Assembly (NCBI GenBank): GCA_008690995.1
Contig: VRMN01000012.1
Coordinates: 62,001 to 126,000 of the forward strand
Reading direction: 5' to 3'
From: Porphyridium purpureum
Taxonomy: Eukaryota
Length of the DNA: 64,000 bases
Shown here: positions 7,246 through 59,946 of the stretch, one piece after another
Layout: each line of letters starts with the position of its first letter
Position numbering within the stretch: position 1 is the first letter of the stretch
The notes under the pieces: model-generated
What the model saw: only the letters and a program-made list of their open reading frames with translations
What the model was told of the DNA's origin: nothing
The model's database searches: none
Program-made: the position numbers and the translations under genes

Positions 7246-7265
7246 GGGAAGCGGAGAGGGTGGGA
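7246..7265 (+). promoter_or_regulatory. Polypurine tract of gypsy element 1
   Basis: GGGAAGCGGAGAGGGTGGGA directly before the 3' LTR. Confidence 0.8.
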
Positions 7266-8322: not shown

Positions 8323-8326
8323 GTAC

Positions 8327-19157: not shown

Positions 19158-19261
19158 CAAGAGAGGCCACAAAAGACAGCACGGGTGTTGAAGCGGAAGA
19201 GAGAGAGGCAGAGACTTATACTGCGAAAGACGGCGGTCGCTTGAGAGGACCGTCCGTGACA
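19158..19261 (-). repeat. LTR-like direct repeat (partner at 12793-12901)
   Basis: Begins TGTCACGGACGG on the minus strand. Confidence 0.8.
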
Positions 19262-19732
19262 AGCGTACGCCATGCACTTTGCTGGTCTTACCAACAATCA
19301 GCTTGCCTCTTCTTTGCGCTTCATCTTATGCTAAAGGTCGGTGCGTCGATAATCTTCTCATGAGAGGTAGAGGCAGCGCCGTGGTGCGGATTGTAGTAGA
19401 AGGCCATTCTCTTTTACTAAACCGAAAGACCTTACCTCTAAGCCCTGTCTCTAAGTGGTGCCGAGTCGCCAGGCGAGAGGAGGCTGGCGCTTAAATAGAG
19501 CCGCTGGACTGCACTTCGCTTCTGCCGTGCGGGCACGGCCCTGCGGAGGGGTCGCCCGAGTGGAGGTGAGGGGTCGCGCCCCCTCCCGCGTCTTCGCCGT
19601 CGGGCGAACTAGCTGCCCCAACGGAGCGTCTCCATCCAGCCCGACCGGTTGCGGCGCCCTGGTGACAAGGACCGAACCGCTGCCGGTCTCGCCGTTGGGG
19701 CGTACAGCGATGTCATCACATCTTCACTTGTA

Positions 19733-21126: not shown

Positions 21127-21324
21127 TCGCTACCGAGGTATGTGGGTACAGTTGCCTGCGAGATAAGATAGCGGCCGGTCTGGCAAACCTGTGGCGACAG
21201 TGGTAGAGAGAGAGAGAGAGAGTGGACAGAGAGTAGTAAAGAGGACTTATAGTTCCCGGCCCATGGTAGCGGGTGAGAGCCCCCCAAAGCTGACTACTCG
21301 TCCACACGGAAGATAGCAACAACA
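21125..21324 (+). repeat. 5' LTR of the GalEa-like copia
   Basis: Direct repeat of 26201-26400; contains (AG)9. Confidence 0.96.
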
Positions 21325-21437
21325 TTGAATTCAATCCGTTGCGTGGATTGTCTTCGGGGAGAAGGAAGGAATATTCCTATCACAAGGAGAAAACAAAGAG
21401 AACTTTCGCCCTCTGGGCAGGCCTGTGTAGGCACAGG

Positions 21438-24400
21438 ATGTCTCAGTTAAGCGGATCGGTTCTATCCACCCGCGTGCTAGAGGCACGCGAGTTGACGGAA
21501 GAGTACAAAGCACAAATGGCAGACAAGGACACGGCGGAGATCTTGGAGTCCCTTCAGGTTATGTTCACCGGCGAGATCATCAAGAATCTGGGGCCTGTCG
21601 GCCAGTTCTCATTCTACAGGTGGCTTGTAGACAAAGGAGTCACGATTCCTGAGAAAGACCATGGTGGGAACATAATCCCTGTTCTTTTCCGCCTTTTACC
21701 ATTGTTGTCAGTCAGCCAGCGGGATCCGGGATCCACTTCTAATGTGCAGGCTACAGTCGAGGTGGGGAGTATGGAAATCCAATCTGACAACGACAGGTCC
21801 GACGTGCCATACACTGATGGTACATCTCAAGGAGCGCGCGTTGCTATGAGCAAAAGCGAGGAAACCTTCATGAGACGCTACAGTGCATTCACCAAGGCAT
21901 ATCAGAGTGTAGATTCAAAGTTCTACGGTACCGACGAGGAAAATTTCGCCGCATGGCGAATGCAACTCGTAAATCATTTAGCTCTACACAATCTGGATGA
22001 TCAGTACACTGCACAGGTGATCCAAGCCTGTCTCGCAGGCGATGCTCTTACGTTTTATCTTGGGACGTATGTTGACGAAGATTTGACAAAGTTCACCATA
22101 GCAGATGTTCTGGTGGGCTTAAGGGACCACTTTTACACCATCGAGAAGCTTGAACGCCTGCAGGAGCAGTGGGAAAAGGCAAACTTCGCGGAATTCCAGG
22201 CTAACAATTCCAATATCTCTGAAGTGGAAAATTTTAAGTCTTTGACCCAAAGACTCAAAAGAATCCAGCCAAATTTGAAAAAACCATACAGATCCCATGA
22301 AATGCTACGTGACAAGTATAAGCAAATCATGTTCAGACATCCTGTATACGAGCGCCTCGTCATGACCCCGCTGCCAACATCGGCTGACGCACTATGCAGC
22401 AAAATTGAAGCCTTGCTTCTGCATATGCAACCCAGTACAGTCTCGCCAAAGCCGCAGCTTGCTTTCACTGCGCAGCAGACGTCAAGGGCACCTATGGCTC
22501 AGCCAAATCACTCGGTGACTCTGTATCAAGAGCGATACAGGCGTTCGCATGCAAAACCGCAGGCTAATCGGGCAAGATCTACTCCTCGACCGATTAGCAT
22601 CGCATCCGCCAGCAATCCTCGTACGGCAAACGGCACACAGCTTCTTTGCGACATTTGCCAATCCGCAAAACATTTTCGGCGGTTCTGCCCCGACAAGGAA
22701 GCCAAAAGGAAATTTTATACTGCGAATTCAAACTACATGGTGGCAGATTTTCTAGGCTCCGACTCTTCTTCGGGTGCAGACGCAAGCGACAGCACCGACG
22801 ATGTCACCCACACAGACCTCGTTTGGCTTTCGCCAAGTCTTGTTCTTTTTCAACATGACACCGCTTTTGTTATTGTCGACAGCGGCGCTAGCGGTGGAAA
22901 CTTAGTGGGTGAACGATTCTGTCAAGCCCGACAAACCGTCCAAGTTACAGCCCCGCCAAGACGCGTAAAAATGGGCACAAGTGTCTTCGACACTCGCGGT
23001 CAAGCCAAAATTGTCATGCTAGACATAGGTGGAGCAAAGCTCGAATTCTTTGCTGATGTCATACAACTTGACATCCCACCACTTCTTGGATGGCGCGAGC
23101 AAAAGGCGCGACACATGACACTGGACGCGGGCGCCGGCATATTAACGGCCCTTGCCGACAGCGAACAGCTCAACTTTAGGGTCCACACAATTGCTGGACT
23201 CCCTTGCATTTTACTTCCAAATCCAGAAAATCCAGATTCGGTCAAAGAGCAACGTGATGATATAGTCCTGTTCACTGCTACAGAATTGCGCAGATTACAC
23301 GTGCACTTTGGGCACGCACATCTCGACAAAATCCGCGATCTGTTGCAGCGCAGTGGTCAACGTCTGACTTCTGCCGAAATTCGCTGGTATGCAGATATCG
23401 TACAGAAGTGCAAAGCTTGCCAATTCTACGCGGATGTACCACGGCGCCCCATTGTGGCCATGCCAGTCAACCCGTTCTTCAACCGCGATATCGCCATAGA
23501 CACTGTATACTTCGACGGCCTCGCTGTGCTACACATTGTGTGCAAAGGAACCAAATATGCCAGGAATCCTGTTTTACGACGCACGGATGCGGTAACCGTC
23601 ATCAGTACGTTCTATACTTCTTGGATCACCATCTTTGGCATTCCGGCCACATTATCCATGGACCGCGGTACTGAGTTTCTGAATGCAACTTTACTCGAAT
23701 TCTGTGATGGACTCGGCATTGTGATGCGTCCAGCGGCGACTGCAGCAGCCTGGTCGATAGGTGTCGTGGAACGACACCATAAGCCCCTGAAAACTGTGTA
23801 CTTTCGCTTGAAAACAACATTCCCAGACCGCGATTGCGAATTATTGCTCGCACAAGCAGAATTTGCACTGAATGCCACGCTTGGCAACCGCTACACATGT
23901 CCATTTTTACTGGTCTTCGGTCAATTACCCGTGTTCCCGCTTGGCACAGTCCAGGACCAACACAAAATGACCACAGACCGCCATATGGCTATGGAAGTCG
24001 CGCGTAGAACGACCGAAGGTATCATTGCTACCAGGCGCATTCGCGAGGCAACGCACACAAGCGTTTCAGAAAGCGCACCAGCTTTGCTGAGCCGTGGAGA
24101 CCGGGTGCTGTTCTGGCGCCCAAGTGAGAGAGCTTGGGTCGGACCCGCGACCGTGGTCCATGTACACGGAGATGCGAAAACGGTAAAAGTTGAATACAAA
24201 ACGCGGAACTACCACCCAGCTCTCCACCAAGTCAAATTGTTCGTCGCGGATCAAGTGCTATGGGCCGACGAGACTGAGACTTTCTCCAAAATTCTGCAAG
24301 TATCAGAACATTCACTCAGAAGAAAATGTGACTTTACGATATCGCGCGCCAAAGAAATCGATGGATGGCATGCAAAGGGCGTAGTGGAAGCCATTCGCAC

Positions 24401-25769
24401 GACAGAGCGCGCGAATCTAGACACGCGGTGGGTGGACTCCATCAAACTTTCAGATGGAAAAGAGTTCCCGAAATCACGTCTCGCCTTGCGAGAGTTTGCA
24501 AAATTGCAACCACATGGTTCCATGCTTCGAGACTCACCTACGACATCACGATGGACTGTGCGCGTTCTGCTCTCAGTAGCACTTAATCAATCATGGTCCA
24601 TATCATCCTCGGACGTCGAACAAGCCTTTCTTCAGAGCCAGCCTCTGAAACGTCGCGTTTTGGTGCAACCTCCAAAAGAAGCTGGTCTACCATCTGGTGT
24701 CCTCTGGCTTCTGAAGAAAGCCGCCTACGGTCTGGTGGATGCTGCGTACATCTGGTACGAGTCTCTCCGCGACGTGCTCGTCAACAAAATGCAAATGAAA
24801 GAGTCCATGGTAGACCCGTGCTTATTTGTTGCGAACGAGGGTGCATGCACAACCCAAGTCGACGATATCTTAACCGTGGGCACGCCCCAATTTCTCGAAG
24901 CTCAAAAAGAAATTCGCAAGTATCTACAGCTCCATCGAGAAAAACGTGAGAAGTTCATTTTCAACGGAGCCCAGCTCACAGTCAAGGAGAACTGTGTCAG
25001 TATTGATTTACAAGCGTATATCGAGAAATCTCGCATTGTGGCAGTGAGAATCACCACTTATAGTGACTTCCAGCGCTTCCGCGGCCAACTGCTATGGCTT
25101 GCTGCAAATTCGAGACCAGACTTAGCGTATCCTGCTGCACAACTCTCGCAAATCTCACAAGACATGTTCGACCATAAGGTGTACAAAGAGTTAGTAGCCC
25201 AAGCGCGGGGTGCAGTCTGCACAATGCCATATTTGCACTTCAACCGCCTTCACGGCACCGTGGCAATTCAAGTATTTGCGGACGCCAGTTTCGCAAACAA
25301 TGTTGACTTGAGCAGCCAGCTCGGCTTTATCATCTGTCTCGCGGACAGCCAAGGCCATTATAATATTGTGCACTGGCGTTCGGGAAAATCCCGCCGTGTT
25401 GTCAAATCGACTCTCGCAGCCGAGACGCTCGCAGTCATCGACGCATTCGACCACGCCGGTGCAGTGAAGCATATGCTCCAGGAACTAGGAATTCCCAGCC
25501 CGGAAGTTATTCTTTACACGGACAATCGATCCGTATTTGACGCCATGTCCAAGCGCACGGCCTGCACCGAGAAAGCCGTACAGATATCTGTCGCCATCCT
25601 GCGCCAAGCATTGCAAGAAGCAGCGCTCACCAAAATCGGACTTCTGTTGTCTGCTGACAATCCAGCCGATGCATTGACCAAAGCGCGCGGCAACTCTGAG
25701 CTAGACTCGCTCCTGCGTGCTGAAGTCTATCACCCTAAGGTTGTGGAATGGTTTGAAGTGAAAAAGTAG
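21438..25769 (+). CDS. Gag-Pol polyprotein of the GalEa-like copia
   Basis: CDICQSAKHFRRFC, IVDSGAS, LHVHFGH...CKAC, DRGTEF, KSRLALR, LKKAAYGLVDA, QVDD, FADASFAN, NPADALTK. Confidence 0.95.
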   Translation: MSQLSGSVLSTRVLEARELTEEYKAQMADKDTAEILESLQVMFTGEIIKNLGPVGQFSFYRWLVDKGVTIPEKDHGGNIIPVLFRLLPLLSVSQRDPGSTSNVQATVEVGSMEIQSDNDRSDVPYTDGTSQGARVAMSKSEETFMRRYSAFTKAYQSVDSKFYGTDEENFAAWRMQLVNHLALHNLDDQYTAQVIQACLAGDALTFYLGTYVDEDLTKFTIADVLVGLRDHFYTIEKLERLQEQWEKANFAEFQANNSNISEVENFKSLTQRLKRIQPNLKKPYRSHEMLRDKYKQIMFRHPVYERLVMTPLPTSADALCSKIEALLLHMQPSTVSPKPQLAFTAQQTSRAPMAQPNHSVTLYQERYRRSHAKPQANRARSTPRPISIASASNPRTANGTQLLCDICQSAKHFRRFCPDKEAKRKFYTANSNYMVADFLGSDSSSGADASDSTDDVTHTDLVWLSPSLVLFQHDTAFVIVDSGASGGNLVGERFCQARQTVQVTAPPRRVKMGTSVFDTRGQAKIVMLDIGGAKLEFFADVIQLDIPPLLGWREQKARHMTLDAGAGILTALADSEQLNFRVHTIAGLPCILLPNPENPDSVKEQRDDIVLFTATELRRLHVHFGHAHLDKIRDLLQRSGQRLTSAEIRWYADIVQKCKACQFYADVPRRPIVAMPVNPFFNRDIAIDTVYFDGLAVLHIVCKGTKYARNPVLRRTDAVTVISTFYTSWITIFGIPATLSMDRGTEFLNATLLEFCDGLGIVMRPAATAAAWSIGVVERHHKPLKTVYFRLKTTFPDRDCELLLAQAEFALNATLGNRYTCPFLLVFGQLPVFPLGTVQDQHKMTTDRHMAMEVARRTTEGIIATRRIREATHTSVSESAPALLSRGDRVLFWRPSERAWVGPATVVHVHGDAKTVKVEYKTRNYHPALHQVKLFVADQVLWADETETFSKILQVSEHSLRRKCDFTISRAKEIDGWHAKGVVEAIRTTERANLDTRWVDSIKLSDGKEFPKSRLALREFAKLQPHGSMLRDSPTTSRWTVRVLLSVALNQSWSISSSDVEQAFLQSQPLKRRVLVQPPKEAGLPSGVLWLLKKAAYGLVDAAYIWYESLRDVLVNKMQMKESMVDPCLFVANEGACTTQVDDILTVGTPQFLEAQKEIRKYLQLHREKREKFIFNGAQLTVKENCVSIDLQAYIEKSRIVAVRITTYSDFQRFRGQLLWLAANSRPDLAYPAAQLSQISQDMFDHKVYKELVAQARGAVCTMPYLHFNRLHGTVAIQVFADASFANNVDLSSQLGFIICLADSQGHYNIVHWRSGKSRRVVKSTLAAETLAVIDAFDHAGAVKHMLQELGIPSPEVILYTDNRSVFDAMSKRTACTEKAVQISVAILRQALQEAALTKIGLLLSADNPADALTKARGNSELDSLLRAEVYHPKVVEWFEVKK

Positions 25770-26200
25770 TGTACACTGCACTTTATGGGTGTTCACTTAC
25801 ACACCAATATAGATTCTGACGGAAATTGAACTGTTCCGTGGGTCTCAAGGAAGGTGAACAGGAAGCAACAGTTTTCGTCGATTACGCTGTCTGTCGTCGT
25901 GTCCCACGCGGTGGTTACGTGTGACAAGCCAAATGCGCTTCGCCCACAAGCTTGTGCGGGCATGAAGGGCAACGCGTGAAGGTTTGATGTTTTATTCTTT
26001 TTCTTTGTATGTTTGAGTCTGTTGAATTCAGCAATTTTCGAGTGCGTGTTTTTGTCCTGAGAAGGTTTTTCCGCCGTGCTGATTTGAATTTGTTTCTTCT
26101 ATTCTAAGTACTCCATTTCGTTGTCCAAGACTCACGTTGATGTAACAATTCCGTGTCGCCTCGGTTGATGCGCTCATGCCACAAAAGGAAAAGGGTTGTG

Positions 26201-26400
26201 TGTCACTACCGAGGTATGTGGGTACAGTTGCCTGCGAGATAAGATAGCAGCCGGTCTGGCAAACCTGTGGCGACAGTGGTAGAGAGAGAGAGAGAGAGTG
26301 GACAGAGAGTAGTAAAGAGGACTTATAGTTCCCGGCCCATGGTAGCGGGTGAGAGCCCCCCAAAGCTGACTACTCGTCCACACGGAAGATAGCAACAACA
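26201..26400 (+). repeat. 3' LTR of the GalEa-like copia
   Basis: Direct repeat of 21125-21324. Confidence 0.96.
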
Positions 26401-28830: not shown

Positions 28831-30141
28831 ATGGCGGATGGGCGTGACTTGTTCGAGGACCGCAAGGCTGCTGAGACGACCGCGCGTCTACCGAGGTTTG
28901 TTAGCTTGAACACAAGTTCAAAATATGTGAAGACTAGTGGTCGTGGAAGCAGCGGGCTTGAGCATGATTCAGTCGGTTTTGGCGGAGAATCGGATAATCT
29001 CAAGTATTCTGCGGACAACCTGCTGCCCGAGTATGTCGATGTTCCCACAAGCCCGGCTACCAGCACGAGGGACTCAACGCGTGAGTCGATGCGTCGAGGC
29101 GCGAGGAGCGGATTCAAGTACGCCAGGGAACGCATAAAAGAGGGATGGGCCCGCCTGTGCGACGACTTCAAGTACTTTGTGCTTGAAACCTCATTCACGA
29201 GCGTGGCTATTGCGTTTGTGGTTGCTGAAGCCTTTGTTGCCGTCATCAACCAGTTTGTAACCTCCTTCGTGACACCCTTTTTCGCACTGATTGGCGGCGA
29301 ACCCGACTTTTCCAACATCAAGTTTACAATCAATGGCACTGATTTCCTCATCGGGGACTTTGTGAACGCCTTCGTTGCATTCACAATCATTTGTATGGTG
29401 GTCTTCTTCATCGTTATTGTGCCAGTGCGAAGAGTGCAGGCCAAGCTTGAGATTCCGAAGCGAGAGTGTCCGTACTGCTGCTCGGAAATTCCGTGCGCCG
29501 CCAGTCGATGCGCATATTGCTGCAAAGACGTTGTGCCCATTGAGATCGAAATTACCTCACGCTCAAGTACCAAGCAGCTCACAGATTACGCACGGAAGCT
29601 ATGCAACGGTGGGAAGTGCCGCGCTGGTTGCCTTTGTTTCAGGAAACGGCGAAAGCATGCGCGCCAAGGTGAGGATGGCAGCGAAGCCGTGGATGTTAAC
29701 TTGGGCGATGCGGGCTTTTTTTCCTCGGACGCCGAAGCCGGCAGTACTGGCCTCTCGCGCTTTGCAAGGCGTATAGAAGTAGAGAAGCGGCGCTCGTCGT
29801 CGCGAGCCGTGCCTACTCGAGAAGGCGAACCACCACCAACCTCCGCAGACGAGTACGCGAACCAGAATATTTTGCGTGACCATTATGTACGCCCGTTGTC
29901 TGGAAGAACTGGTGACCCCACTGTGGATACGCCGGCGGAGCCGCTCAACCGCGCGCCTGTCCCTGCTCCTCTCCCTGCAGCGCCAGCTTCTGAGCAGGAG
30001 TCGGAGCCGGAGCCCATACCCACGCGTGCTCATACAAAAGAGAAGCCACATGGAAACGACGGCAGTGCTCAAGCTGCGGATGCGTCAGAAATGATCGTGC
30101 CGGCGTATCCCAGTGCAGTTGACGCCGTTCATGCGGTATGA
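28831..30141 (+). CDS. mscL: MscL-family large-conductance mechanosensitive channel with C-terminal zinc ribbon and long extensions
   Basis: DDFKYFVL...VAIAFVVAEAF...GGEPDFS...IGDFVNAFVAFTII followed by CPYCCSEIPCAASRCAYC (29161-29523). Confidence 0.85.
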   Translation: MADGRDLFEDRKAAETTARLPRFVSLNTSSKYVKTSGRGSSGLEHDSVGFGGESDNLKYSADNLLPEYVDVPTSPATSTRDSTRESMRRGARSGFKYARERIKEGWARLCDDFKYFVLETSFTSVAIAFVVAEAFVAVINQFVTSFVTPFFALIGGEPDFSNIKFTINGTDFLIGDFVNAFVAFTIICMVVFFIVIVPVRRVQAKLEIPKRECPYCCSEIPCAASRCAYCCKDVVPIEIEITSRSSTKQLTDYARKLCNGGKCRAGCLCFRKRRKHARQGEDGSEAVDVNLGDAGFFSSDAEAGSTGLSRFARRIEVEKRRSSSRAVPTREGEPPPTSADEYANQNILRDHYVRPLSGRTGDPTVDTPAEPLNRAPVPAPLPAAPASEQESEPEPIPTRAHTKEKPHGNDGSAQAADASEMIVPAYPSAVDAVHAV

Positions 30142-30576: not shown

Positions 30577-32757
30577 ATGGGGTTCGGATTGGGGAAGAAG
30601 GCATCGGTGGATCAGGCGGTGAAAATGAGACCAAGGCATAAGGACGTGCACACGCAAACGAGCCTATCGTACTGGCTAAACCCGAAAAATCGTGCTCTTG
30701 CACGTACCAGTAGTGAGGTGGTCAAGCCAATCCACATGCAGAGAAGTTGCCACACTCAGACTTGCTCGTCGGTCACGAGTACGGTGACTGGCAGGGAGTT
30801 ACCACCTGAGCATGGTACTGAAAAAGTGGCAGACTTTCGAAGACATCGGACGGTGGAAGAAATTTCTTATCCTGAAGACATGGACGATGTGGAAAATATG
30901 GATCCCAATAGAATTGTGCAGATTACTCCTTCGAATCGAAGGCTTTCCGAATCGAGAGACCAGTCTAAGGCTTGGAAGATATATCCAACTGTCGTACCGA
31001 CTATATTGAATACGCCACACTTTGACATGTTCGAGACGTCGACTGGCTTGAATTATAAAGGCCAGAGTACGCCTGGACCCGGAGGACCCGAGCCGGAGCC
31101 CGAGCCGCCGAGCCCGAGCCGAGCCGGAGCCGAGCAGCGTGCAGGTAGTGTTCGCAGAGTTGAGCAGCCTGAGTCGTCAGGAAAACAATCGTCCACTTGT
31201 ACAGTGGTCCTGCCGGAAATGAAGAAGCGCGTGTCGGATGCAGAAATCAATGATCTGGCTGAAAATCATGTCATTGCAAAACCAGCACTCACGTCTGAAT
31301 GTCAGCCAGAGGCCTCAAAGATAACGGCGCCGCCTTCGAAACTGAACCGCGATGGCCAAGCAACGCAACATGTTACACGCAAAATGAGAACATTGGAGAG
31401 GCAGCAACAGCACTTAGGACCTGCAAGACCCGCTTCGGTGCAAGTCTTGGTTCAAGAAGGCGCAGCGTACCACTGTGCACAGAACTGGAATCCCAGCAAT
31501 TCAACTTCGCATGTGCTGCCTATTCGAAGCGTGTCAAAAATCCGCGCAGGTGCAAAGCTAGTCATAGACACATTCCAGACACTCACGACCTTTCGTGTGC
31601 TGAAACGAATTGCCTTGCCGTCAAGCAGTACCACATCTGCAAGTCCAAGTCCGGCTTTTTACACTGCCGTCGTTCATGCTCGCTGCGCAGGTCATCGACC
31701 GAATGGTGCCGTGACTAGCAGTAGTACCGTGCTTCTCAAGGTTGTTGCGCCTGGCAGTATCTGGGATTTTTACATCATCAATATCATCCGGGAACGTATC
31801 GGAGGCTCGGGTCGTGCGGATCTGTTGCCATTTATGCCATGTGCTCCGCGCCTTTTCCACCACCAAGACGAGTGTATTCTGGCGCTGAAACTGGCGAGTG
31901 GCACGCTGCGGGGCGACGATACGTTTGTTCCACTCGGCACACTCCTCAAAGGGCAGCGCCAGACTGTTCGGCGTACGTGCGCGAACCCGGTTGGCCCGGC
32001 CGATGCTTCACAAATGGACGAGCATATTGTAGCGTATTATTTGCACGCCCTTGTACGAGTCGTCCACGGCATGCATCTTGCGTGGGTAGCGCACGGGGGA
32101 ATCTGTGCAGATGTGATTATGGTGAAACGCGGTCGAGATGCCGGAGCGCCAGTAGCTCTCCAGCATCCGAGGAATCCGCATCATACAAACGGTGGTGGTG
32201 GGTCCAAAAATGTGCTCTTGGACGACCCCGTGCTGCTCTTTGTCGATTTTCAGCACGCTGTGGACCTCCGGCTTGCCGAAGCTGCCAGTCGCAGAGCATG
32301 TGGCTCCGCCGCGCCATCTTGCGACAAGCTCAGCGCAGTCCTGTTTGAAGCCGACTTGAATGCCATTGGTCGGTTGGTCCAGAACCTGCTGAGCGCGTGT
32401 ACTAGTCGCACATCTCGATACGAATCTATATCGCGCGACCTATGGCTTCACGACTCTCTCTGGAGTCGTATCATGGACGAGCTGTGTCCCCGCGGAGCGC
32501 TTCAAAACCAGACTGCCTTTGATGGTCCCAACGACACTGTTCAGCCGCAGTTTAACATCTTCGGCCGTCACAATGCGACGCAGGCCCCACTGGAAACCGA
32601 CGCAGGCTTCGCCTCACTATCGCAGCCGCGGAAGCTGCGCTCCGGACACGACACGCTGCGCGCACTCGCGCGCGTGGAGCAGCAGCTGCGCACGTTCATC
32701 GACGCGCGCGCCGTACGTATCCATCACGCGCTGCAGCGCTTCTTCTTCAGCCAGTAA
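30577..32757 (+). CDS. Bub1/BubR1-like kinase-domain protein, probably a pseudokinase
   Basis: LLKVVAPGSIWDFYI, MDEHIVAYY, HGGICADVIMV, LFVDFQHAVDLRL follow the Bub1 pattern (LKV..P...WEFYI, HGDIKPDN, LIDLG.SID). Confidence 0.6.
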   Translation: MGFGLGKKASVDQAVKMRPRHKDVHTQTSLSYWLNPKNRALARTSSEVVKPIHMQRSCHTQTCSSVTSTVTGRELPPEHGTEKVADFRRHRTVEEISYPEDMDDVENMDPNRIVQITPSNRRLSESRDQSKAWKIYPTVVPTILNTPHFDMFETSTGLNYKGQSTPGPGGPEPEPEPPSPSRAGAEQRAGSVRRVEQPESSGKQSSTCTVVLPEMKKRVSDAEINDLAENHVIAKPALTSECQPEASKITAPPSKLNRDGQATQHVTRKMRTLERQQQHLGPARPASVQVLVQEGAAYHCAQNWNPSNSTSHVLPIRSVSKIRAGAKLVIDTFQTLTTFRVLKRIALPSSSTTSASPSPAFYTAVVHARCAGHRPNGAVTSSSTVLLKVVAPGSIWDFYIINIIRERIGGSGRADLLPFMPCAPRLFHHQDECILALKLASGTLRGDDTFVPLGTLLKGQRQTVRRTCANPVGPADASQMDEHIVAYYLHALVRVVHGMHLAWVAHGGICADVIMVKRGRDAGAPVALQHPRNPHHTNGGGGSKNVLLDDPVLLFVDFQHAVDLRLAEAASRRACGSAAPSCDKLSAVLFEADLNAIGRLVQNLLSACTSRTSRYESISRDLWLHDSLWSRIMDELCPRGALQNQTAFDGPNDTVQPQFNIFGRHNATQAPLETDAGFASLSQPRKLRSGHDTLRALARVEQQLRTFIDARAVRIHHALQRFFFSQ

Positions 32758-32760
32758 ATC

Positions 32761-33035
32761 CGTGATTCGGAGGTCAAGCTGTACCCCAGTATCGAGCGCC
32801 GGTGGTTACGAGGTTGTCGATCGCAGCCGGCGGCGGCGCCGTGCGGGTACTTAAACAGCGCCGATTCGTTCCGTCGTAGACGCTCCCAAAAATGCCTCGA
32901 GTCAGAGGAGTTTGTGGTAACGACTAAAGCAGGTAGCCTTTGTTATTTTGTTTTGGTCTAATCTTCTCGGCAGCGAACTTCGGCTCGTTGTTCCCACACC
33001 ATTAGTACTAAGCCTACCACTAGTAAGGCTTCTTG
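32761..33035 (+). repeat. 5' LTR (275 bp) of the hybrid element
   Basis: No difference seen from 38135-38409. Confidence 0.96.
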
Positions 33036-33050
33036 GGTTATGAGCCCAGC
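33036..33050 (+). promoter_or_regulatory. Primer binding site complementary to the anticodon arm of initiator tRNA-Met
   Basis: GGTTATGAGCCCAGC directly after the LTR, similar to the Drosophila copia PBS GGTTATGGGCCCAG. Confidence 0.85.
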
Positions 33051-33315
33051 CGCTATCCTCGCGGCTGCGTTCCTCTCTCTCACCATCCTACTCCCTCTAC
33101 TATCCGCGGTTTTAGCTCTGCCCATACAGCAAAGAAGGCAAGCGCGACATATAAGATTGCTCGCGGAGGAGCAGGCGCGCACAGAGCAGCGACTGGAAGT
33201 CCTCGAAAACCTCGTCGCTAACTATCGACCATACACGAGCGCGGCTCGTAAAGGCGATCGCGCAGTCCGACGAAGAATCGCCGAAACTGAGAGCGAGGAA
33301 CAGCAAACGCTGTAG
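33040..33315 (+). CDS. Small upstream ORF (91 aa): hydrophobic N-terminus, then basic and coiled-coil-like segments
   Basis: MSPAAILAAAFLSLTILLPLLSAVLALP then QQRRQARHIR...EQRLEVLENL; ATG lies inside the PBS. Confidence 0.45.
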   Translation: MSPAAILAAAFLSLTILLPLLSAVLALPIQQRRQARHIRLLAEEQARTEQRLEVLENLVANYRPYTSAARKGDRAVRRRIAETESEEQQTL

Positions 33316-33360
33316 CAAAAAGACTCGTGCACAAAGGCACAGAGCAACGGGATCTCCTCA

Positions 33361-36300
33361 ATGGAATCAGGTCAAAGGACCCCCACCAGGCTCGAGCAGG
33401 AGCGCACCGCAGCGCTCGCTCGCCAGCAGCAGCAGGCCATGCAGGCCGAGCTGGCTGCACAGGCCGCTGCGCAACAACAACAACAGCAGCAGCAGGCAAC
33501 GACCAGCGCCGCGAGTGACATAGAAAACATACGCCAGGCGTTGGCCCAAGAGTTCTCGCGAATGCGCGAGGAGCTCCTTGGGCAGGTGCAAGAGGAGCGT
33601 AATGCTCTTGCTGCCGAGATGCATCGATGGCGCAACGGCGCATACCCGCGAGCCGAAGCAGCGTCGCAAGTCAAAGCCGCGCCAATGGCGCCATTTCTTG
33701 GGGACAGGGATGCACTCGCGGTCGGCGCGTGGTGTGAGACCGCTAGCGAGCGGATCTACATCCAGCTCCAAGAGGAGTATCGCGCCGGCTCTCATCCGTG
33801 GGATGATGATGCTGAACAGAAGTGTGTGCGTATCGCCGCCTCCTTCTTTCATGGGGCGTCTAGGCTTTGGTGGTCAGTGCTTGACCCAAAGCCTGTCCGG
33901 TTTGATGACTTCTTGCAGGCGTTCAGGCGGGAATTCGAACCCATCGCCTCGGACCAGGTCGCGCGTGACAGGCTTGCCGCTTGTGCGCAGCGCAACCGCA
34001 GCGTCCACGACTACGCAAACGATTTCGGAAACTGCCTGCTCAGGCTCCCGTCGGTCGGTGATTCCGAGCGGCTCGATCGTTTTGTGCGCGGTCTGCAGAG
34101 CAAGATTCAAATTCAGGTGCTGCTAAGGCAACCTGCATCGTACCATGAGGCGCTTCGCGCCGCATTGGCAGTCGACGCCGTATTTCGGCAAAGCGTGCAC
34201 GCGTCAGCATTTGCTGAAAAAGATGCAGCGCCAATGGATCTAGGATCGGCCGAGGCTCCGCGCCGACAGACACGAGCACCGAACAGAAAAAGCAAGAAAC
34301 GCCCGAAGAACCAGCAGCGCACCGTGCCGAGGAGCGCGCCGCAAGCACCGTCAAGGACCGCCCGCGTCGGAGCGGATACGTGTCATAACTGTGGGCGCCG
34401 CGGCCACTGGGCCGCCGAATGCACCCACGAGTTGGGTGTCGCGGAGTTTGAGATTGGTGCGGCCGCACTCGCGAAGTCGGACTTGATCCAATTGCCCGTT
34501 TTTATCAATGGCCACGCATCGAACGCGGTAGTCGATACCGGTGCAACCGCGACATTTGTATCAGAGGCGGTGTGCAACAAACTTAGAGTCCCTTTCACGA
34601 AAAGCGGGTCGAACGGGCCACGAATTCGTCTGGCCGATGGACGCACCAAGCCAATCACGGGCAAAGCGTCGTTCTTGCTTACGGTGCCAGGCATCGTCGA
34701 AGAACGCACAGAGGCATGGGTGCACAGCGGGCACCATGCAATGATCCTTGGTCTCGACTGGCTCAACGAGCACCAGGCCAAGCTGCAGGTCGGCGGCAAG
34801 ATCTTGCTGGATGTCTCTACTCCAAGACAATACACAAGGAACGCCGCTAACGCAAGGACACCGGATACTTTGGAATGTGCCGCGACCAATGAGCAAAATG
34901 AAAGCAGCGGGGGCACGGTCGGCATTGAGCACGAGGTGCTCCACATGCCTGCACGCGCTGATTGCGATGCCTGTCAGGCATCCAAGCTTCAGACCATGCG
35001 CGCACCACGCCGCACGCAAACGCCCCAGTTCTCTGCGTTCAACGATACCGTTTCCGTCGACCTAGTCGATCCAACTGAGTACGGTATCTGCGGCGCGAGA
35101 TGGCTCCTGACGCACAGGGACGCGACTACCGGGTGGCTTGTTGTGGCGCCCCTGGCGAACAAGACCGCGGAAAGCGCGTTGACCGCTTTCCTTGAAATAC
35201 AACGCGGTCGCGGCTGGCCGCGACTCGTCAGGAGTGACGAAGGCCGCGAGTTCCAGGGCGCGTTCGAAGTCGCACTGAAGGCCAACCTCGTGGCCCACGA
35301 ATCGGGACTAGCTCACCGACCAAATACGCACGCAACGCACGAACGCGTACACCGGGATCTCAATGCAGGAGTACGCACGCTGCTGCTGACCGCCGGGCTC
35401 GAGCCGGAATGGTTCGCGTTCGCCGCGAAGTACTGGGCCAACGCACGTAATGCCGCCTGGAAAAGCAGGGATGGTATCGCGCCGTATCAGGCTCGCTACG
35501 GACGCAAGTGGGAGCGCGATATCCCGCCTTTTGGCCGTGGAGTTTATATCATGACGGCGGAACGTGCCAAGTTTCACCCCAGGGGTATGCTGTCCCTCGT
35601 CATGGGCATCCGATTCCCATCACCGACCACCAACCGCACCCCGCTCAACGTTCTCGCAATTCCGCTCGACAATCTCCGCCCCTCAGCCGCCAAGTGGGTG
35701 GGAGAGTGGAGCTTGTCAACACGTGTGTTCCCTAGCAAGGAACAACGCTCTAATGAGGGAGCAGTGGATCGGATAATGCCTGAGTGGCATGCAGTGCTCG
35801 ATCCCGATGGGGATCGGACGCCGGAGCGTGCTCGATCAGAGGATCATGACGAGGAAAAGGCGCAAGCCCTGCAAAAGCAAGACATTGACGTCCCGACCAC
35901 GACGGCGTCAAGGGAGGAGTACGAGCGACGCTCATGGAGCACCGAGATGGATGACGCACTGCGTGCCGGGTACGCAGCTCATGGGCCGAAATGGAAAACC
36001 ATTTGCGATACAGGTGGCGAAGCGCTGAGCGGAGTCGGGGGCCTGGCGTTGCGCTCGCACGCGAGCGCAATCGGCCTGCTCGGAGAAAAGGCTACGGGGT
36101 TAGGTAAGCACCGACGCGGCCGGACAGCAGGAGACATCCGCGCCCGTCAAGCCGTCCTCAATGTGGCGCAGCAAATGCAATCGGAGAGCGCCGCACCGGG
36201 CTGCGATAGCTTGCACCTTGGTGTGGCTGAAGTAGTATCGTTTGCCACGCATTCGCGGACGCAGGCGGGACGTCTGGCCTTCACCAAAGAAATGAATACG

Positions 36301-37911
36301 CTCATCAGTAGCGGTGCGCTACCATTCCAGAAAGCACTAGGCCGATGCGAAGCCGCACGCGTGCCGAACGCGCGGTTTGTTAAGTTGAAGCCGATCCTCG
36401 CCATCAAGAACAGCGAGATGCCGCCGGAACACCGAATGCTTAAATGTCGCATCGTGGCACAGGGTTGCCACATCACGGATGTGGATGGCAAACGTGCACC
36501 GCCTGAAACACCACAGTTTGACCGGCCGCCTGGTCTTTCCAGCATACGCGCGGCCGTGTCCGTCGCACTGCACGTGCACGGCGCCGCAGCTGATGCATTA
36601 TTTTTCGATATCGATGCCGCGTATGTCCACGCGCCATTGAGAGGGAACCCCACGTTCGCGTATTTCAAGTCTCTGGTGCCGTTTTTGGAAGGAATCGTTA
36701 CACGTCATGTTCTGCGGAAGATCGCAAGTTTGAAGGACCCCGTGGTCCCGTTGCCAATGGCACTATATGGTCTGCCGCGCGCAGGTTTCGATTATTCCGC
36801 GTACGCCCGCCAGAAACTGTGCGCCGCCCAATGGAGTGAGTCTGCTGCAGACAAGAACGTTTATTGGCGTCGGCGCGCCGGAGTGCTAACGCTACTAGTG
36901 CTTTACGTCGATGACGGGGCCATTTTGGGCACCACTGCCTCGGTGAACGAGGCCATGCACGAGCTGGTGCGCATGTTCAGGATCACGAAGAGCGCGCAGC
37001 TTCTGTCGGAAAGCTCACGCGCACGGCCCATACGCTATCTCGGTGTCAACGTGTACCGCCAGGATGCAGCCTGGATCTTTGATAGTGGCGAGTACGCCAG
37101 ATACATCGCCACGGCCCACAAAGGGGGGCGCGCGAGGGCGACACCGTTGTCTACACGAATCGAGACGAGCGAGAAATTGAATGCCTGCCCACCGGAAGCG
37201 CGCGCTTGCTTGGGCAAGTTGATGTGGCTGTCACGTACGACACGACCGGATTTGGCATACGCGGTGGCCATGATTGCCAGACATACCGATCGATGGTCAG
37301 TGGATGTCCAGCGTGCCATGGATGAGGTATTGGCGTATCTCGCGAAGCACGCAAATATTACCTTACAATACGCGATGCCAAGCACAGATAACAAGGAGAT
37401 CAACATTGTCTGCTTCACTGATTCGGATCTGGATCCCGGCCGCTCCACAAGTGGTGTCGCTATCTTTCTTGCGTCCGGCGGCACTCGTCATCTTGTCGAG
37501 TGGTCAAGCCGTCGCCAAAGGCGCGTCGCTACGTCAACCGCGGAGGCGGAATTGGTGGCAATGCACAGTGCGGTGCAGAACGCGACGTTCCCAATCGCAA
37601 CATTCCTGGATGATGTATTTGCGAAGTGGCCGCGTACAACCGTGCGATGCGATAACGAGACCTCACTCGGTGCGGTGTCGAAGGGATTCAGCCCAGTGCT
37701 AGTTCATGCAAACAAGACCCAACGCATAAGCCTCGCATGGCTGCATGAGCTGCACAGCGAGCATCTCGTCGCTTTTGAACACGTACCCACCAGGGCCAAC
37801 GTGGCTGATCCGTTCACCAAGCCCGTAGGCGCCGACGTCTTTCGCGGACACGCGCGCGCGTGGGGTTTGTCATCGCCTCTCCTGTCCCCGTCCACTGGTG
37901 ATTCGCGTTGA
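33361..37911 (+). CDS. Gag-PR-INT-(Myb-like)-RT-RH polyprotein
   Basis: PMDLG, CHNCGRRGHWAAEC, VVDTGAT, ILGLDWL, HEVLH..CDAC, RSDEGREF, KCRIVAQG, LYGLPRAG, LYVDD, TRPDLAYAV, STAEAEL, NVADPFTKP. Confidence 0.95.
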   Translation: MESGQRTPTRLEQERTAALARQQQQAMQAELAAQAAAQQQQQQQQATTSAASDIENIRQALAQEFSRMREELLGQVQEERNALAAEMHRWRNGAYPRAEAASQVKAAPMAPFLGDRDALAVGAWCETASERIYIQLQEEYRAGSHPWDDDAEQKCVRIAASFFHGASRLWWSVLDPKPVRFDDFLQAFRREFEPIASDQVARDRLAACAQRNRSVHDYANDFGNCLLRLPSVGDSERLDRFVRGLQSKIQIQVLLRQPASYHEALRAALAVDAVFRQSVHASAFAEKDAAPMDLGSAEAPRRQTRAPNRKSKKRPKNQQRTVPRSAPQAPSRTARVGADTCHNCGRRGHWAAECTHELGVAEFEIGAAALAKSDLIQLPVFINGHASNAVVDTGATATFVSEAVCNKLRVPFTKSGSNGPRIRLADGRTKPITGKASFLLTVPGIVEERTEAWVHSGHHAMILGLDWLNEHQAKLQVGGKILLDVSTPRQYTRNAANARTPDTLECAATNEQNESSGGTVGIEHEVLHMPARADCDACQASKLQTMRAPRRTQTPQFSAFNDTVSVDLVDPTEYGICGARWLLTHRDATTGWLVVAPLANKTAESALTAFLEIQRGRGWPRLVRSDEGREFQGAFEVALKANLVAHESGLAHRPNTHATHERVHRDLNAGVRTLLLTAGLEPEWFAFAAKYWANARNAAWKSRDGIAPYQARYGRKWERDIPPFGRGVYIMTAERAKFHPRGMLSLVMGIRFPSPTTNRTPLNVLAIPLDNLRPSAAKWVGEWSLSTRVFPSKEQRSNEGAVDRIMPEWHAVLDPDGDRTPERARSEDHDEEKAQALQKQDIDVPTTTASREEYERRSWSTEMDDALRAGYAAHGPKWKTICDTGGEALSGVGGLALRSHASAIGLLGEKATGLGKHRRGRTAGDIRARQAVLNVAQQMQSESAAPGCDSLHLGVAEVVSFATHSRTQAGRLAFTKEMNTLISSGALPFQKALGRCEAARVPNARFVKLKPILAIKNSEMPPEHRMLKCRIVAQGCHITDVDGKRAPPETPQFDRPPGLSSIRAAVSVALHVHGAAADALFFDIDAAYVHAPLRGNPTFAYFKSLVPFLEGIVTRHVLRKIASLKDPVVPLPMALYGLPRAGFDYSAYARQKLCAAQWSESAADKNVYWRRRAGVLTLLVLYVDDGAILGTTASVNEAMHELVRMFRITKSAQLLSESSRARPIRYLGVNVYRQDAAWIFDSGEYARYIATAHKGGRARATPLSTRIETSEKLNACPPEARACLGKLMWLSRTTRPDLAYAVAMIARHTDRWSVDVQRAMDEVLAYLAKHANITLQYAMPSTDNKEINIVCFTDSDLDPGRSTSGVAIFLASGGTRHLVEWSSRRQRRVATSTAEAELVAMHSAVQNATFPIATFLDDVFAKWPRTTVRCDNETSLGAVSKGFSPVLVHANKTQRISLAWLHELHSEHLVAFEHVPTRANVADPFTKPVGADVFRGHARAWGLSSPLLSPSTGDSR

Positions 37912-38134
37912 GTTGAGAAGGGTTAGATTTCGCTCCTATCTTCGAGCGAGCGACGGGCTGCTAATGATTGCCCGTTTCGCAGTGAAGTTCATGGCATGGC
38001 CGTCGCCGGATGTACACCCCCAGAACGGGGGCGACTTTATGTGAGTCCGAGGGACCCATCTGTGGGGGAACCTCATTGTTTGATATGATAGGGCTTTAGA
38101 TACGCGCAAAATATGGGATAAGCGTGAGGGGGCG

Positions 38135-38409
38135 CGTGATTCGGAGGTCAAGCTGTACCCCAGTATCGAGCGCCGGTGGTTACGAGGTTGTCGATCGCAG
38201 CCGGCGGCGGCGCCGTGCGGGTACTTAAACAGCGCCGATTCGTTCCGTCGTAGACGCTCCCAAAAATGCCTCGAGTCAGAGGAGTTTGTGGTAACGACTA
38301 AAGCAGGTAGCCTTTGTTATTTTGTTTTGGTCTAATCTTCTCGGCAGCGAACTTCGGCTCGTTGTTCCCACACCATTAGTACTAAGCCTACCACTAGTAA
38401 GGCTTCTTG
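38135..38409 (+). repeat. 3' LTR (275 bp) of the hybrid element
   Basis: Preceded by GAGGGGG plus 2 nt and followed by the TSD AAATC. Confidence 0.96.
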
Positions 38410-38563
38410 AAATCCACTGTACACTATCACAAAGCGTACTGTACACTACTGGTGACCGGGAGATCGCGCGCGGAAGTGATGGACGGAAAGAAGGAGAGTA
38501 TTGGCAGCAGCAAGAGGTGTGGTCGAGTTCCGTCCTGAAGCAGCGGCGACGACGAGCACTGCC

Positions 38564-49611: not shown

Positions 49612-52491
49612 ATGACTGCAAGCACGATGGCGCGGCATGGTCTGAGCGCTCTCGCGCTGGTCCTGCTGGTGTTCGGTGCGGCACACGCCGTCCCGATGAC
49701 CACTAACCAACGCCTCGTCGTTCCGGAAGACATTTGCTACACGTCTCAAGGCATTGAGATTTACGGCTGCGGGCGCGGCTGGCTAGACCCGAACGATCCG
49801 TACTATCCGTTCCTGCTGCCTATCAAGATTAATGAGGGCCTTTCGCCGGCGGACAATGTCTTTGAGCTCAAGTGCCCCTCGGACCGAATCGTTTACGCTG
49901 GTGGGAACTGCATGTGGTCGTCATTCGAGGCAGCTGCGAACCCACAAAGCACCTGCCCAGGTCTGTTCAACGCGGGCGACGATTCCAACTTTGCCGTGCC
50001 GACACCAATCTACCCCGACTCGCCGATGACGGTTGTCGAGGCCCTCGTGGACACGGACAAATGGATGATTGTCGACGACGATCTCCATAAAATCGCGTTC
50101 TCGGGCGAGAGCTGGGCGGATCACAAGGGCTTTGGACTTGTTTCGGTCACCGACCACGAGTACTCGACCATGTTTGAAAAGCTTGTGGTGTTCAGCACGG
50201 GAGGCGCCGCCGAAGGCGTACACGCGCGTGAGATGTGCAAGGAGGCGTATGGAACTAACAACGGTGGTTCCAGCGATGACAAGTTTGCAGCAAATGGCGA
50301 CAAGGCCCCCTTCTTGGGCGTGTGCACGACTGACTTCAACGATCCGTCCAGCGTGGTAGCAGAGACGAGCTCGTGCGCCGTGATTCAGTTCTATTTGTGC
50401 GCCAACGTGGACGGCGTGTGTGATTACGCCAACGCAGCGGCACCTAGGCCTGAACTCGACGATCTCAACTTTGGATTCGGTTTCGCCTCGGACGAGTACC
50501 AACGCTTTGCTGGCCAGTTTGGCGAGGTCACGTTATTCAGCGACGTGTCGGCCATTAGCGTGGTAAGGCTCGGGCTTCCGACCGAGCCAAACTATCCTTA
50601 CACGACTCTGTGGGACCAGGCGACGATGACTATTGTTGGGAACCGTGCGCAACTGCCAAATGGCTTGGGCGAGGTGTCTGTCGGAAACGTGAACCTGCAG
50701 ACCAACCCGACCTTTTTCAGCAGCCAAGACAGCGTGTCCAACGCCAAGATTGAATCTTTCGGTTGGTCGCGCTTCCTGGAGGCTCCGTACGCGGAGAAGA
50801 TTTACCAGAATACGGTGTACAAGTTTACCGTTGGTGTCTGCGACTGCGGAGCTGATGGTACGTCGTGGAGCTCGGCGCTTTATATGGGCGCTGACTCGAT
50901 CACGCGCTGTGACTTTACGCCGAGCACCAGCGTGTGCTCGTACGACGAGTCTGTGTACACGAAGATTGGTGAAACCTCGGATGGTGTCATTCAGCTGCAA
51001 TTGCTCCCGACAAAGTGCCCCGTGTCGCTCGTTCCGACATTTAGCAACGAGTGTGGCGGAGACGACCAAGTGATGACCAAGGTGAGCACGACGTCGAATG
51101 GCGACGGATCGATCACCCAGGTGTTCGAATCTCCGTACCGCCCGGATAGCGCGTTCGGACGCTGCTCGTACCAGTTGTTCGGTGTGGATGAGGTTCTGCC
51201 CACCGCAAGCATTGATGTGAGTCCAGGTGCGGCAAAGATCCAGGGGGCGGCCGGTGCACCAGTACAATTCACGTGGTCCGCTTCGGGGTGCAACCTGATC
51301 AATGTGGAAATCGCGTACGATTCGAATGACGCGGCACCCGCAACAAAGATGCCGGTTGCGGCTACGCATATCGAGGCGTACGCTGCACCGTACCCACAGG
51401 CAGACCAAGACGTCGAGACCGTGACGTACTTCTACGCCAAGTCGGCCGACAAGAAGGCCACCGACCAGCCAGGTGTGACTTACAAATTGGAGCTTGGAAC
51501 AACAGAGTACGTTGCGGTCATTACGGTAACGGATTCATTCGGTCGCACGGCGACTGCCTCTGTTCCTGTGTGCATCGCCGAGGACTGGACGAACCCGACA
51601 GGAGTGGACGCCAACGGTGACTGCCTCGTGAAGGATTTGTTCGGAGCGTGTGTGCCGAACATTGACTCTTTTACCTGCGACGTCGGAGGGACACCTTCTC
51701 CAAGCCCAAGCCCAAGCCCAAGCCCGAGCCCGAGCCCGAGCCCAAGTCCGAGCCCAAGCCCAAGCCCAAGCCCAAGCCCAAGCCCAAGCCCAAGCCCAAG
51801 CCCAAGCCCAGCACCACCAGCGCTTGAATACTGCTGCTCAGCGAACGATGACGGTGCAGTGTGCGCGGTGGTGTCAGAGGAGCCGAAGGCAACTAAGGAT
51901 TGCTCATCCTCATCAGGCAGCAGCGGCAGTGAGAAGAGCGGATCTGAATCCGAGAGCTCGGACAGCGACAAGGAAAGTGGCACGGAACGCTCGTCGGGAG
52001 GCAGCGGCAGCGAGAAGAGTGACTCCAAGTCGGAAAGCTCTGGCAGTGAGAAGGAAGTGAGGAGACTGTGGAAATGGTCACGCTCAAAGTCTGGGAAGTC
52101 GGGCTCAGACTCGAAATCATCGAGCGGGTCGGACTCGGGCTCAGAGTCTGAGGTCGAGTCGATCGGAACACCATGCTGCCCATGTAAGTGCCCGGCACCG
52201 CCGCCGACGCTTCCGACATGTGGCAAGGGCAGTGGCTCGGAATCCGAGAAGAGCGGCTCGGAGAAGAGCGGCTCGGAGAAGAGCGGCTCGGAGAAGAGCG
52301 GTTCGGAAAAGAGCGGCTCGGAGAAGAGCGGTTCGGAGAAGAGCTGTTCGGAAAAGAGCGGCTCGGAGAAGAGTGGCTCGGAGAAGAGTGGCTCGGAATC
52401 CGAGAAGCGTGGCTCGAAATCGAACAAGCGTGGCTCGAAGGGCTCTGGCAGTGAGTCGGAAAGCTGCGATTCCAAGTCGGAGAGCGATTAG
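49612..52491 (+). CDS. Secreted protein A: Cys-rich N-domain, (SP)19 linker, Cys motifs, SEKSG-repeat tail
   Basis: Signal-peptide-like LSALALVLLVFGAAHA; EYCCS..GAVC; PCCPCKCP..PTCG; TATA-like sequence near 49484. Confidence 0.85.
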   Translation: MTASTMARHGLSALALVLLVFGAAHAVPMTTNQRLVVPEDICYTSQGIEIYGCGRGWLDPNDPYYPFLLPIKINEGLSPADNVFELKCPSDRIVYAGGNCMWSSFEAAANPQSTCPGLFNAGDDSNFAVPTPIYPDSPMTVVEALVDTDKWMIVDDDLHKIAFSGESWADHKGFGLVSVTDHEYSTMFEKLVVFSTGGAAEGVHAREMCKEAYGTNNGGSSDDKFAANGDKAPFLGVCTTDFNDPSSVVAETSSCAVIQFYLCANVDGVCDYANAAAPRPELDDLNFGFGFASDEYQRFAGQFGEVTLFSDVSAISVVRLGLPTEPNYPYTTLWDQATMTIVGNRAQLPNGLGEVSVGNVNLQTNPTFFSSQDSVSNAKIESFGWSRFLEAPYAEKIYQNTVYKFTVGVCDCGADGTSWSSALYMGADSITRCDFTPSTSVCSYDESVYTKIGETSDGVIQLQLLPTKCPVSLVPTFSNECGGDDQVMTKVSTTSNGDGSITQVFESPYRPDSAFGRCSYQLFGVDEVLPTASIDVSPGAAKIQGAAGAPVQFTWSASGCNLINVEIAYDSNDAAPATKMPVAATHIEAYAAPYPQADQDVETVTYFYAKSADKKATDQPGVTYKLELGTTEYVAVITVTDSFGRTATASVPVCIAEDWTNPTGVDANGDCLVKDLFGACVPNIDSFTCDVGGTPSPSPSPSPSPSPSPSPSPSPSPSPSPSPSPSPSPSPSPAPPALEYCCSANDDGAVCAVVSEEPKATKDCSSSSGSSGSEKSGSESESSDSDKESGTERSSGGSGSEKSDSKSESSGSEKEVRRLWKWSRSKSGKSGSDSKSSSGSDSGSESEVESIGTPCCPCKCPAPPPTLPTCGKGSGSESEKSGSEKSGSEKSGSEKSGSEKSGSEKSGSEKSCSEKSGSEKSGSEKSGSESEKRGSKSNKRGSKGSGSESESCDSKSESD
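51697..51810 (+). repeat. 6-bp coding repeat encoding (Ser-Pro)19
   Basis: AGCCCA/AGCCCG units. Confidence 0.95.
52243..52392 (+). repeat. 15-bp coding repeat encoding SEKSG x10
   Basis: TCGGAGAAGAGCGGC-type units; one unit reads SEKSC. Confidence 0.95.
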
Positions 52492-52739
52492 GCAATCAAT
52501 TTTGAAAGTATACCACTCCACAGCACAACTGTTGGACGTGGTTCGAGGAATAAGATGAGAAAGTAACCATTGCGACTAAAGACATACCCTGATAGGAATT
52601 TTTGGATAAATCACCTTGAAGCCGAGCCACATTGGTGTCCGAGCGCGCAGCCCGTTTCCAGCACGGCGGATACGTTGGGCCCTTTCTCCAGTTCGGCGCG
52701 CGCACGGTTGCTCTGCTGTCATCCGCCCCCAAGCCACTC

Positions 52740-54892: not shown

Positions 54893-54951
<59 letters not shown>

Positions 54952-59915: not shown

Positions 59916-59946
<31 letters not shown>

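Follow-up and report, generated by a model that had tools for sequence, protein, structure and literature searches.

Organization of the element

We describe an intact long terminal repeat (LTR) retrotransposon at positions 32761–38409 (+ strand) of a 64,000-nucleotide stretch of Porphyridium purpureum DNA (contig VRMN01000012.1, positions 62,001 to 126,000; hereafter the window). Judged by sequence, its single Gag-Pol open reading frame (ORF) joins a capsid and protease (PR) of the Ty3/gypsy type to an integrase (INT), reverse transcriptase (RT) and RNase H (RH) of the Ty1/copia type (Table 1). The element is inserted directly past the stop codon of a host ORF of 726 amino acids (aa). As the first-pass annotation had stated, the two LTRs match at 275/275 bases and the Gag-Pol ORF is open throughout, with the motifs quoted from it at the expected places: a script located APMDLG at aa 290, DTGAT at 392, ILGLDW at 462 and HEVLHMPARADCDAC at 524, followed by KCRIVAQG at 1028, LYGL at 1135, YVDD at 1182, TRPD at 1294, STAEAE at 1392 and ADPFTK at 1482. 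The resulting order, PR–INT–RT–RH, is that of copia elements, and the gypsy order RT–RH–INT was not encountered. Within the integrase, 34 residues lie between D626 and E661. No Pfam family above the cut-off was found in the 91-aa upstream ORF.

Half-tRNA priming is a feature of Drosophila copia and Ty5. The primer-binding site (PBS) of the present element matches, at 14 of 15 bases, an antisense tRNAiMet oligonucleotide in the accessible text of PMC1797187, an oligonucleotide that does not represent the host's own tRNA, and its bases 1–12 equal the end of an oligonucleotide in the available part of PMC11230868; the 64-kb window holds no tRNA gene for comparison with the PBS. For plants, half-tRNA primers are reported in the accessible portion of PMC6317226 solely for Ty1/copia lineages, and the lineages concerned, Osser, Bryco and Gymco-II, share the half tRNA-Met PBS with our element.

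Table 1. Features of the hybrid element, in window coordinates (TSD, target site duplication; PPT, polypurine tract; pLDDT, predicted local distance difference test)
Feature	Position	Strand	Remarks
Left TSD AAATC	32756..32760	+	overlaps stop codon (32755-32757) of upstream 726-aa host ORF
5' LTR	32761..33035	+	275 bp, non-canonical ends 5'-CG...TG-3'; ends fixed by further insertions
PBS GGTTATGAGCCCAGC	33036..33050	+	abuts 5' LTR; complements tRNA-iMet anticodon arm (half-tRNA type)
Upstream ORF, 91 aa	33040..33315	+	N-terminus hydrophobic; ATG within PBS
Gag-Pol ORF	33361..37911	+	1516 aa, single, free of stops and frameshifts
Capsid domain, aa 104-275	33670..34185	+	Ty3/gypsy-type by sequence; model pLDDT 96.6
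CCHC zinc knuckle	34378..34428	+	Pfam
Aspartic protease (DTGA...ILGLDW)	34474..34800	+	Ty3/gypsy-type
Unconserved linker	34801..34929	+	putative gypsy-to-copia junction, from profile switch
Integrase, copia-type	34930..35730	+	compact H-x3-H-x6-C-x2-C finger; D567, D626, E661
Myb/SANT-like three-helix domain	35926..36075	+	after integrase core
Reverse transcriptase, copia-type	36283..37230	+	profile scores and tree
RNase H, copia-type (STAEAE, ADPFTK)	37393..37830	+	
Putative PPT, purine-rich tract	38115..38134	+	just before 3' LTR
3' LTR	38135..38409	+	same sequence as 5' LTR
Right TSD AAATC	38410..38414	+	

Front half: capsid and protease

The Pfam families matched above cut-off in the ORF are Retrotrans_gag, zf-CCHC, gag-asp_proteas and Asp_protease_2, with Ty3_capsid, RVP_2 and RVT_2 below it; Retrotran_gag_2, Pol_BBD, rve and RVT_1 gave no Pfam match in the ORF at E up to 1. 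This agrees with the gypsy-type Gag and protease proposed in the first-pass annotation. Gypsy-associated Gag and protease families, and none of the copia ones, were likewise found in proteins P0003, P0004, P0008 and P0010, and a resident canonical copia protein, P0144, taken as a control, carries Retrotran_gag_2 and Pol_BBD. A five-sequence Gag-PR profile scanned against the PDB placed Ty3 Gag at the top and matched the Copia virus-like particle protein at the knuckle only; with a single sequence, the PDB search returned no match under E 0.05.

Word-seeded Gag-PR searches were nearly empty (2 matches in one, 5 in another). Searched against 1.84 billion proteins, the Gag-PR profile ranked 11 family-like matches first (9 from P. 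purpureum) and then P0156 (E 2.3e-45), an element of P. purpureum that carries RVT_1 and has its domains in gypsy order. An RT family was recognized in 11 of 33 matches scanned for it (chosen by rank and length from the 152 non-query matches of this search and the word-seeded search with 5 matches), and in all 11 that family was RVT_1. Profile scores were 133 bits for P0156, 112 for P0300 (a distant P. purpureum element, see below), 41 for one plant record with Ty3_capsid, and 23 for P0144, the last spanning the knuckle; the remaining proteins of the 117 scored <10 bits on the capsid region.

The two domains were also placed separately. All eight family members examined have proteases that score 36–58 bits with the gypsy profile vs 8–21 with the copia profile, and in the protease tree (33 rows, including 18 of 42 copia and 7 of 10 gypsy rows) the family joins gypsy at 100/100. 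Congruence of the protease and RT trees was rejected (p 0.0016), and so it was for P0144 taken by itself (p 0.026). In the capsid tree, built from 33 of 48 rows once long and redundant ones had been removed, the family groups with P0156, P0157, P0211 and two further rows at 99/96; a quick tree of all 48 rows did not resolve the link between the family and P0156. Capsid identity to P0156 is 34%, and between the hybrid families it is 30–33%. By sequence comparison, then, we assign the capsid and protease to the Ty3/gypsy type.

Back half: integrase, reverse transcriptase and RNase H

The RT scores 78.1 bits with the copia profile and 3.3 with the gypsy profile. In an RT tree of 43 rows, from which 4 rows lacking a YxDD match and 10 further rows had been left out, it nests in copia beside P0144 and P0012–P0014 (Shimodaira–Hasegawa approximate likelihood ratio support 98), and a 27-row RT-RH tree returns the same nesting at 100/99. 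The integrase (34 rows) groups with P0012–P0014 and P0300 at 100/98, on a copia side supported at 100/100; its placement with gypsy was rejected (p 0.0005), and its best PDB match is 7z0h_W, which we take to be Ty1 integrase. These comparisons class the integrase, RT and RNase H as Ty1/copia-type by sequence. In the trees the two halves fall on opposite sides, Gag and protease with gypsy, which bears out the fusion that the first-pass annotation had proposed.

The change of type was localized with sliding profiles from which Porphyridium rows were excluded. Over aa 101–500 the gypsy profiles reach up to 65 bits and the copia profiles ≤16, and over aa 1101–1516 copia scores of 20–63 bits are accompanied by gypsy scores below 0. 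The switch falls at aa 450–550 in P0001 and P0010 and slightly later in the longer P0004, and the controls P0144 (resident copia) and P0156 (resident gypsy) keep to their own type throughout. Contigs from runs X1 and X13 cross the PR/INT linker (34707–35031) with 0 differences; although these are short-read contigs and not long reads, they give no sign of the misjoin that the first-pass annotation had named as a risk. A misassembly, or one element lying dead inside another, can practically be set aside: no contig reaches from end to end of the element, but the crossing contigs, the single frame, the identical LTRs, the one TSD and a layout shared by five clusters on many contigs all speak against it.

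Evidence weighing against a hybrid

Several of our results weigh against the hybrid reading, or lessen the force of the evidence for it. The searches that supplied the gypsy and copia reference sets used the halves of this very protein as queries, so that the profiles and trees are biased toward the result; the Pfam and PDB scans alone are free of this bias. Retrotrans_gag alone is not diagnostic, being present also in the copia-type matches P0020, P0086 and P0088, and the capsid tree holds no copia Gag rows. The protease of the resident gypsy element P0156 is not close (23% identity), the protease of P0012 is without clear type (5.4 vs 1.0 bits), and a position of the family protease nested in gypsy could not be told from one sister to it (p 0.51), an approximately unbiased test that neither supports nor opposes chimerism. 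The capsid model (pLDDT 96.6) shows the fold common to retroelements. Its fold Z scores (VIA) are 14.8 for PEG10 (root mean square deviation 1.5, 85 residues aligned), 12.0 for Copia (4.8, 161), 11.1 for Ty3 (5.2, 149) and 11.0 for Ty1 (2.0, 82), and Foldseek ranks dArc1, PNMA2 and PEG10 at the top; since Copia, Ty3 and Ty1 lie within 1 Z unit, capsid structure does not decide the matter. Further, the integrase of P0144 groups with mainstream copia, so that this protein, the best witness for a copia-type ancestor, may itself be recombinant (within copia). Finally, sense RNA is abundant only from 34113 downstream and has a foreign 5' end.

Families and age of the probable exchange

An RT-RH search returned 194 proteins, the best of the 120 listed being five P. 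purpureum clusters at 44–100% identity. The whole layout, defined as gag motif, gypsy-type protease, compact finger, YVDD and RNase H end in one protein, is present in 19 of the 28 listed members of these clusters, on many contigs; the remaining 9 lack at least one of the layout motifs and are mostly fragments. Because the layout is common to families whose RT-RH identity is only 44–76%, the swap must be old, and the similar GC content of the two halves (0.608 vs 0.594) is as expected of an old swap. These proteins are annotated merely as 'Copia protein'.

The first-pass annotation had spoken of a recently active recombinant lineage; we find that the copy is recent and the recombination itself ancient. 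It had also linked the compact integrase finger to dinoflagellates: the finger is indeed present, but 18 of the 120 listed RT-RH matches carry it, 13 carriers lying outside the five Porphyridium clusters, and the two matches named Symbiodinium do not fit, so that on this evidence it is no dinoflagellate marker.

P0300, a distant P. purpureum element and cluster mate of a Gag match, has gypsy-type Gag and protease before copia INT-RT-RH and branches apart from the family in RT-RH trees. It is possible that P0300 represents a second, independent swap; a single origin of P0300 and the family was not rejected (RT-RH p 0.093, capsid p 0.50). P0144 groups with the hybrid family in RT-RH, and its Gag, protease and integrase are mainstream copia; the position of its integrase indicates that exchange of the front half may recur in this RT-RH clade. 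In P0013, an outside relative, an AAA_28 NTPase domain is fused after RNase H.

Insertion sites, alleles and RNA

A contig of run X8 omits 5654 bases precisely at the element, and contigs of runs X11 and X2 likewise pass from the left to the right flank; the empty allele seen in these three runs sits on a haplotype with other variants. Since the LTRs are identical and an empty allele exists, this copy is young. Another copy differs at 3 of 1516 aa, and two additional 3' flanks were seen in run contigs; runs X17–X20, of small share, do not enter into these results. At a second insertion GCGGA stands at both the right and the left flank, which are assumed to belong to one locus; if they do, the insertion has a 5-bp TSD and LTR ends CG...TG. 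This would supply the further copy with a different TSD that the first-pass annotation had suggested looking for, and for the exact TSD noted there it favours the 5-bp AAATC: the locus also admits a 6-bp reading, AAATCC, which we rejected on the second insertion.

The palindrome TGTACA lies within about 20 bases of a junction in three of three insertions, vs 1.4% of non-element window positions. It is also present at the window's other copia element and hence may mark tolerated gene ends and not a family-specific target. TGTACAC occurs 20 times in the window (5.2 expected) and adjoins several transposon junctions (38418, 38440, 26406 and 19729); possibly it is a 3'-end signal of the alga.

The abundant RNA comes from another copy. 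It carries other variants and a different 3' flank, and its foreign 5' sequence was not found in the window; since variants, 3' flank and 5' end all differ, we rejected it as a sign of activity at this locus. The RNA junction lies at 34113–34117, at an AG acceptor-like site (runs X8, X11 and X21–X23), and the joined RNA omits the capsid and would encode knuckle, protease and Pol only.

The Myb/SANT-like domain

Behind the integrase, 9 of 11 examined proteins (one of which is truncated) carry a Myb/SANT-like motif, and Pfam Myb_DNA-binding is matched below cut-off in several family members. A family profile of this part matches TBF1 (E 0.0017) and c-Myb in the PDB, and the structure model has three confident helices here; a fold search returned nothing under E 0.001, with TBF1, TRF1 and Myb ranking first.

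Other features of the window

A second intact copia element occupies 21126–26400, with LTRs of ~200 bp that are 99% alike and end in TG...CA, TSD CTTGC and a 1443-aa ORF. The palindrome ATTGAATTCAAT follows its 5' LTR at the usual place of the tRNA site, and its Gag and integrase give weakly gypsy-like scores. It is probably GalEa/PyRE10G-like, a placement made without a reference sequence. Beside it, at 19732–21127, lies a Tc1/mariner-type transposon with DDE_3, HTH_Tnp_Tc3 and 67-bp inverted repeats. A gypsy element at ~1087–8325 has long near-identical LTRs, separate gag (2312–3253) and pol (3403–7026) ORFs, RVT_1 and a chromodomain; its Gag has no Retrotrans_gag match, and it is not of the donor type. 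A direct repeat pair 6.36 kb apart (12793–12902 and 19158–19262) possibly represents the LTRs of another element. Among the host sequences, the ORF at 28831–30141 encodes an MscL mechanosensitive-channel domain, a family that is mainly bacterial, and 49612–62505 holds tandem paralogous ORFs with Pro/Ser-rich and 9–15-base repeat arrays.

Relation to known elements

With the Ty1/copia elements (Pseudoviridae) our element shares the PR-INT-RT-RH order, the kinship of RT, RNase H and integrase, the single ORF and the 5-bp TSD, but it differs by its gypsy-type capsid and protease, compact integrase finger, CG...TG ends and Myb/SANT-like domain; it has neither the typical copia Gag (Retrotran_gag_2) and protease (Pol_BBD) nor TG...CA ends. 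With the Ty3/gypsy elements (Metaviridae), namely P0156 and chromodomain-bearing relatives, it shares the capsid, the PMxLG motif and the DTG...ILGxDW type of protease, whereas its RT, RNase H, integrase, domain order and PBS are copia-type instead.

Red-algal mosaics offer the nearest parallel. Peddigari et al. in 2008 reportedly described PyRE10G of Porphyra yezoensis, which from the title is a copia element with a gypsy-like integrase. PyRE10G, known to us from that title only, and the GalEa clade would thus be copia/gypsy mosaics of red algae like our element, but in PyRE10G the gypsy-like part is the integrase, and in our element the integrase is copia-type and Gag-protease gypsy-type. 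The GalEa-like CoRex1 is given a PBS TGGTAGCAGAGC and an HX4HX30CX2C finger in the accessible part of PMC3587641, and our element has neither. Gmr1-like elements share with it the INT before RT and the gypsy-type front, yet Gmr1 is gypsy by RT and our element copia. The diatom CoDi-A copia elements (PMC2774666, as far as the text was available) carry, like our element, an added chromatin- or DNA-reading module at the integrase C-terminus; theirs is a chromodomain and ours Myb/SANT-like, with no Pfam Chromo match at E up to 1. The copia–gypsy links named in the available part of PMC2774666 are only the CoDi-A chromodomains and the Gmr1 order. Three CoDi families without TG/CA ends, in the part of PMC2806351 at hand, are a precedent for odd ends. 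For P. purpureum itself, PMC6811547 reports 8% LTR DNA and recent expansion, and the available main text contains neither 'copia' nor 'gypsy'. No description of the present layout was found in the literature searched, a coverage outside which lie the PyRE10G paper, subscription papers, Repbase and supplements.

It is very improbable, in our judgement, that the element belongs to an already described mosaic lineage, be it PyRE10G/GalEa of red algae, CoDi-like, or Gmr1-like with copia order. A published title does name a red-algal copia 'encoding gypsy-like integrase', Porphyridium cruentum is reported to harbour GalEa-like elements (PMC3587641) and the Gmr1 integrase precedes RT. However, RT and integrase of our element are both copia, its PBS, zinc finger and ends are unlike the CoRex1 description so far as that source is accessible, it lacks a Chromo domain, and its grouping with the window's second copia element and the relatives P0316, P0085 and P0106, whose GalEa-like status is presumed, was rejected (p 1e-6).

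Origin of the hybrid

We consider it probable that the gag-protease cassette of an ancestral copia element gave way to one from a gypsy lineage that resides in the same alga. Since the copia-type PBS lies upstream of gag, such a swap would need two crossovers, one in the stretch from PBS to gag and the other in that from protease to integrase. Either template switching or nested insertion with deletion could have brought them about, and the protease would have moved together with its Gag substrate. The single ORF may then give one polyprotein cut by its own gypsy-type protease, with the gypsy-type Gag forming particles and packaging the RNA. Half tRNA-iMet would prime the copia RT, and the copia integrase would insert the cDNA with a 5-bp TSD, accepting CG...TG ends, while the Myb/SANT-like domain may help to choose the target.

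An unlikely, though coherent, alternative is that the gypsy-type Gag-protease was acquired a single time by the common ancestor of a wider copia clade, or is an old shared state, and that canonical members such as P0144 and P0013 regained copia fronts; our element would then be a normal representative of a deep clade that has been little sampled, and not the product of a swap at the level of Porphyridium. The first branching of P0300, with its gypsy-type Gag and protease, in the RT-RH clade, the discordant integrase of P0144 and the weakly gypsy-like Gag (23 bits) and integrase of the neighbouring copia element would all fit such a history. Against it stand the proteases of P0013 and P0144, which score 28 and 74 bits as copia vs 8 and 6 as gypsy, and the capsid, whose partner in the tree is a gypsy element from this very genome, as close to it in identity as the families are to one another; moreover, one origin of P0300 and the family without reversals was not rejected.

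Beyond replacement of the cassette within the alga, which we prefer, we put forward a fuller picture only tentatively, regarding it as doubtful as a whole: a still mobile, undescribed hybrid lineage of Porphyridium whose copia enzyme module took up the cassette of a co-resident gypsy element, perhaps twice independently, and which evolved an integration system of its own, where a Myb/SANT reader steers insertion of the CG...TG-ended cDNA to gene ends marked by TGTACA, the genome being dense in genes.

Significance

Copia and gypsy elements are classified in different virus families, and it is assumed that packaging, processing and priming depend on co-adaptation of Gag, protease and the enzymes. 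A diversified lineage with young copies indicates that capsid and protease, as a module, can be traded across the copia/gypsy divide, the breakpoint falling between the protease and the integrase, and that classification based on RT overlooks a hybrid front half. The non-canonical ends and the Myb/SANT-like domain may offer a handle on end recognition and targeting by the integrase. Finally, as a naturally occurring case in an alga with a small genome, the lineage would allow one to learn which Gag-Pol and Gag-RNA contacts are truly family-specific.

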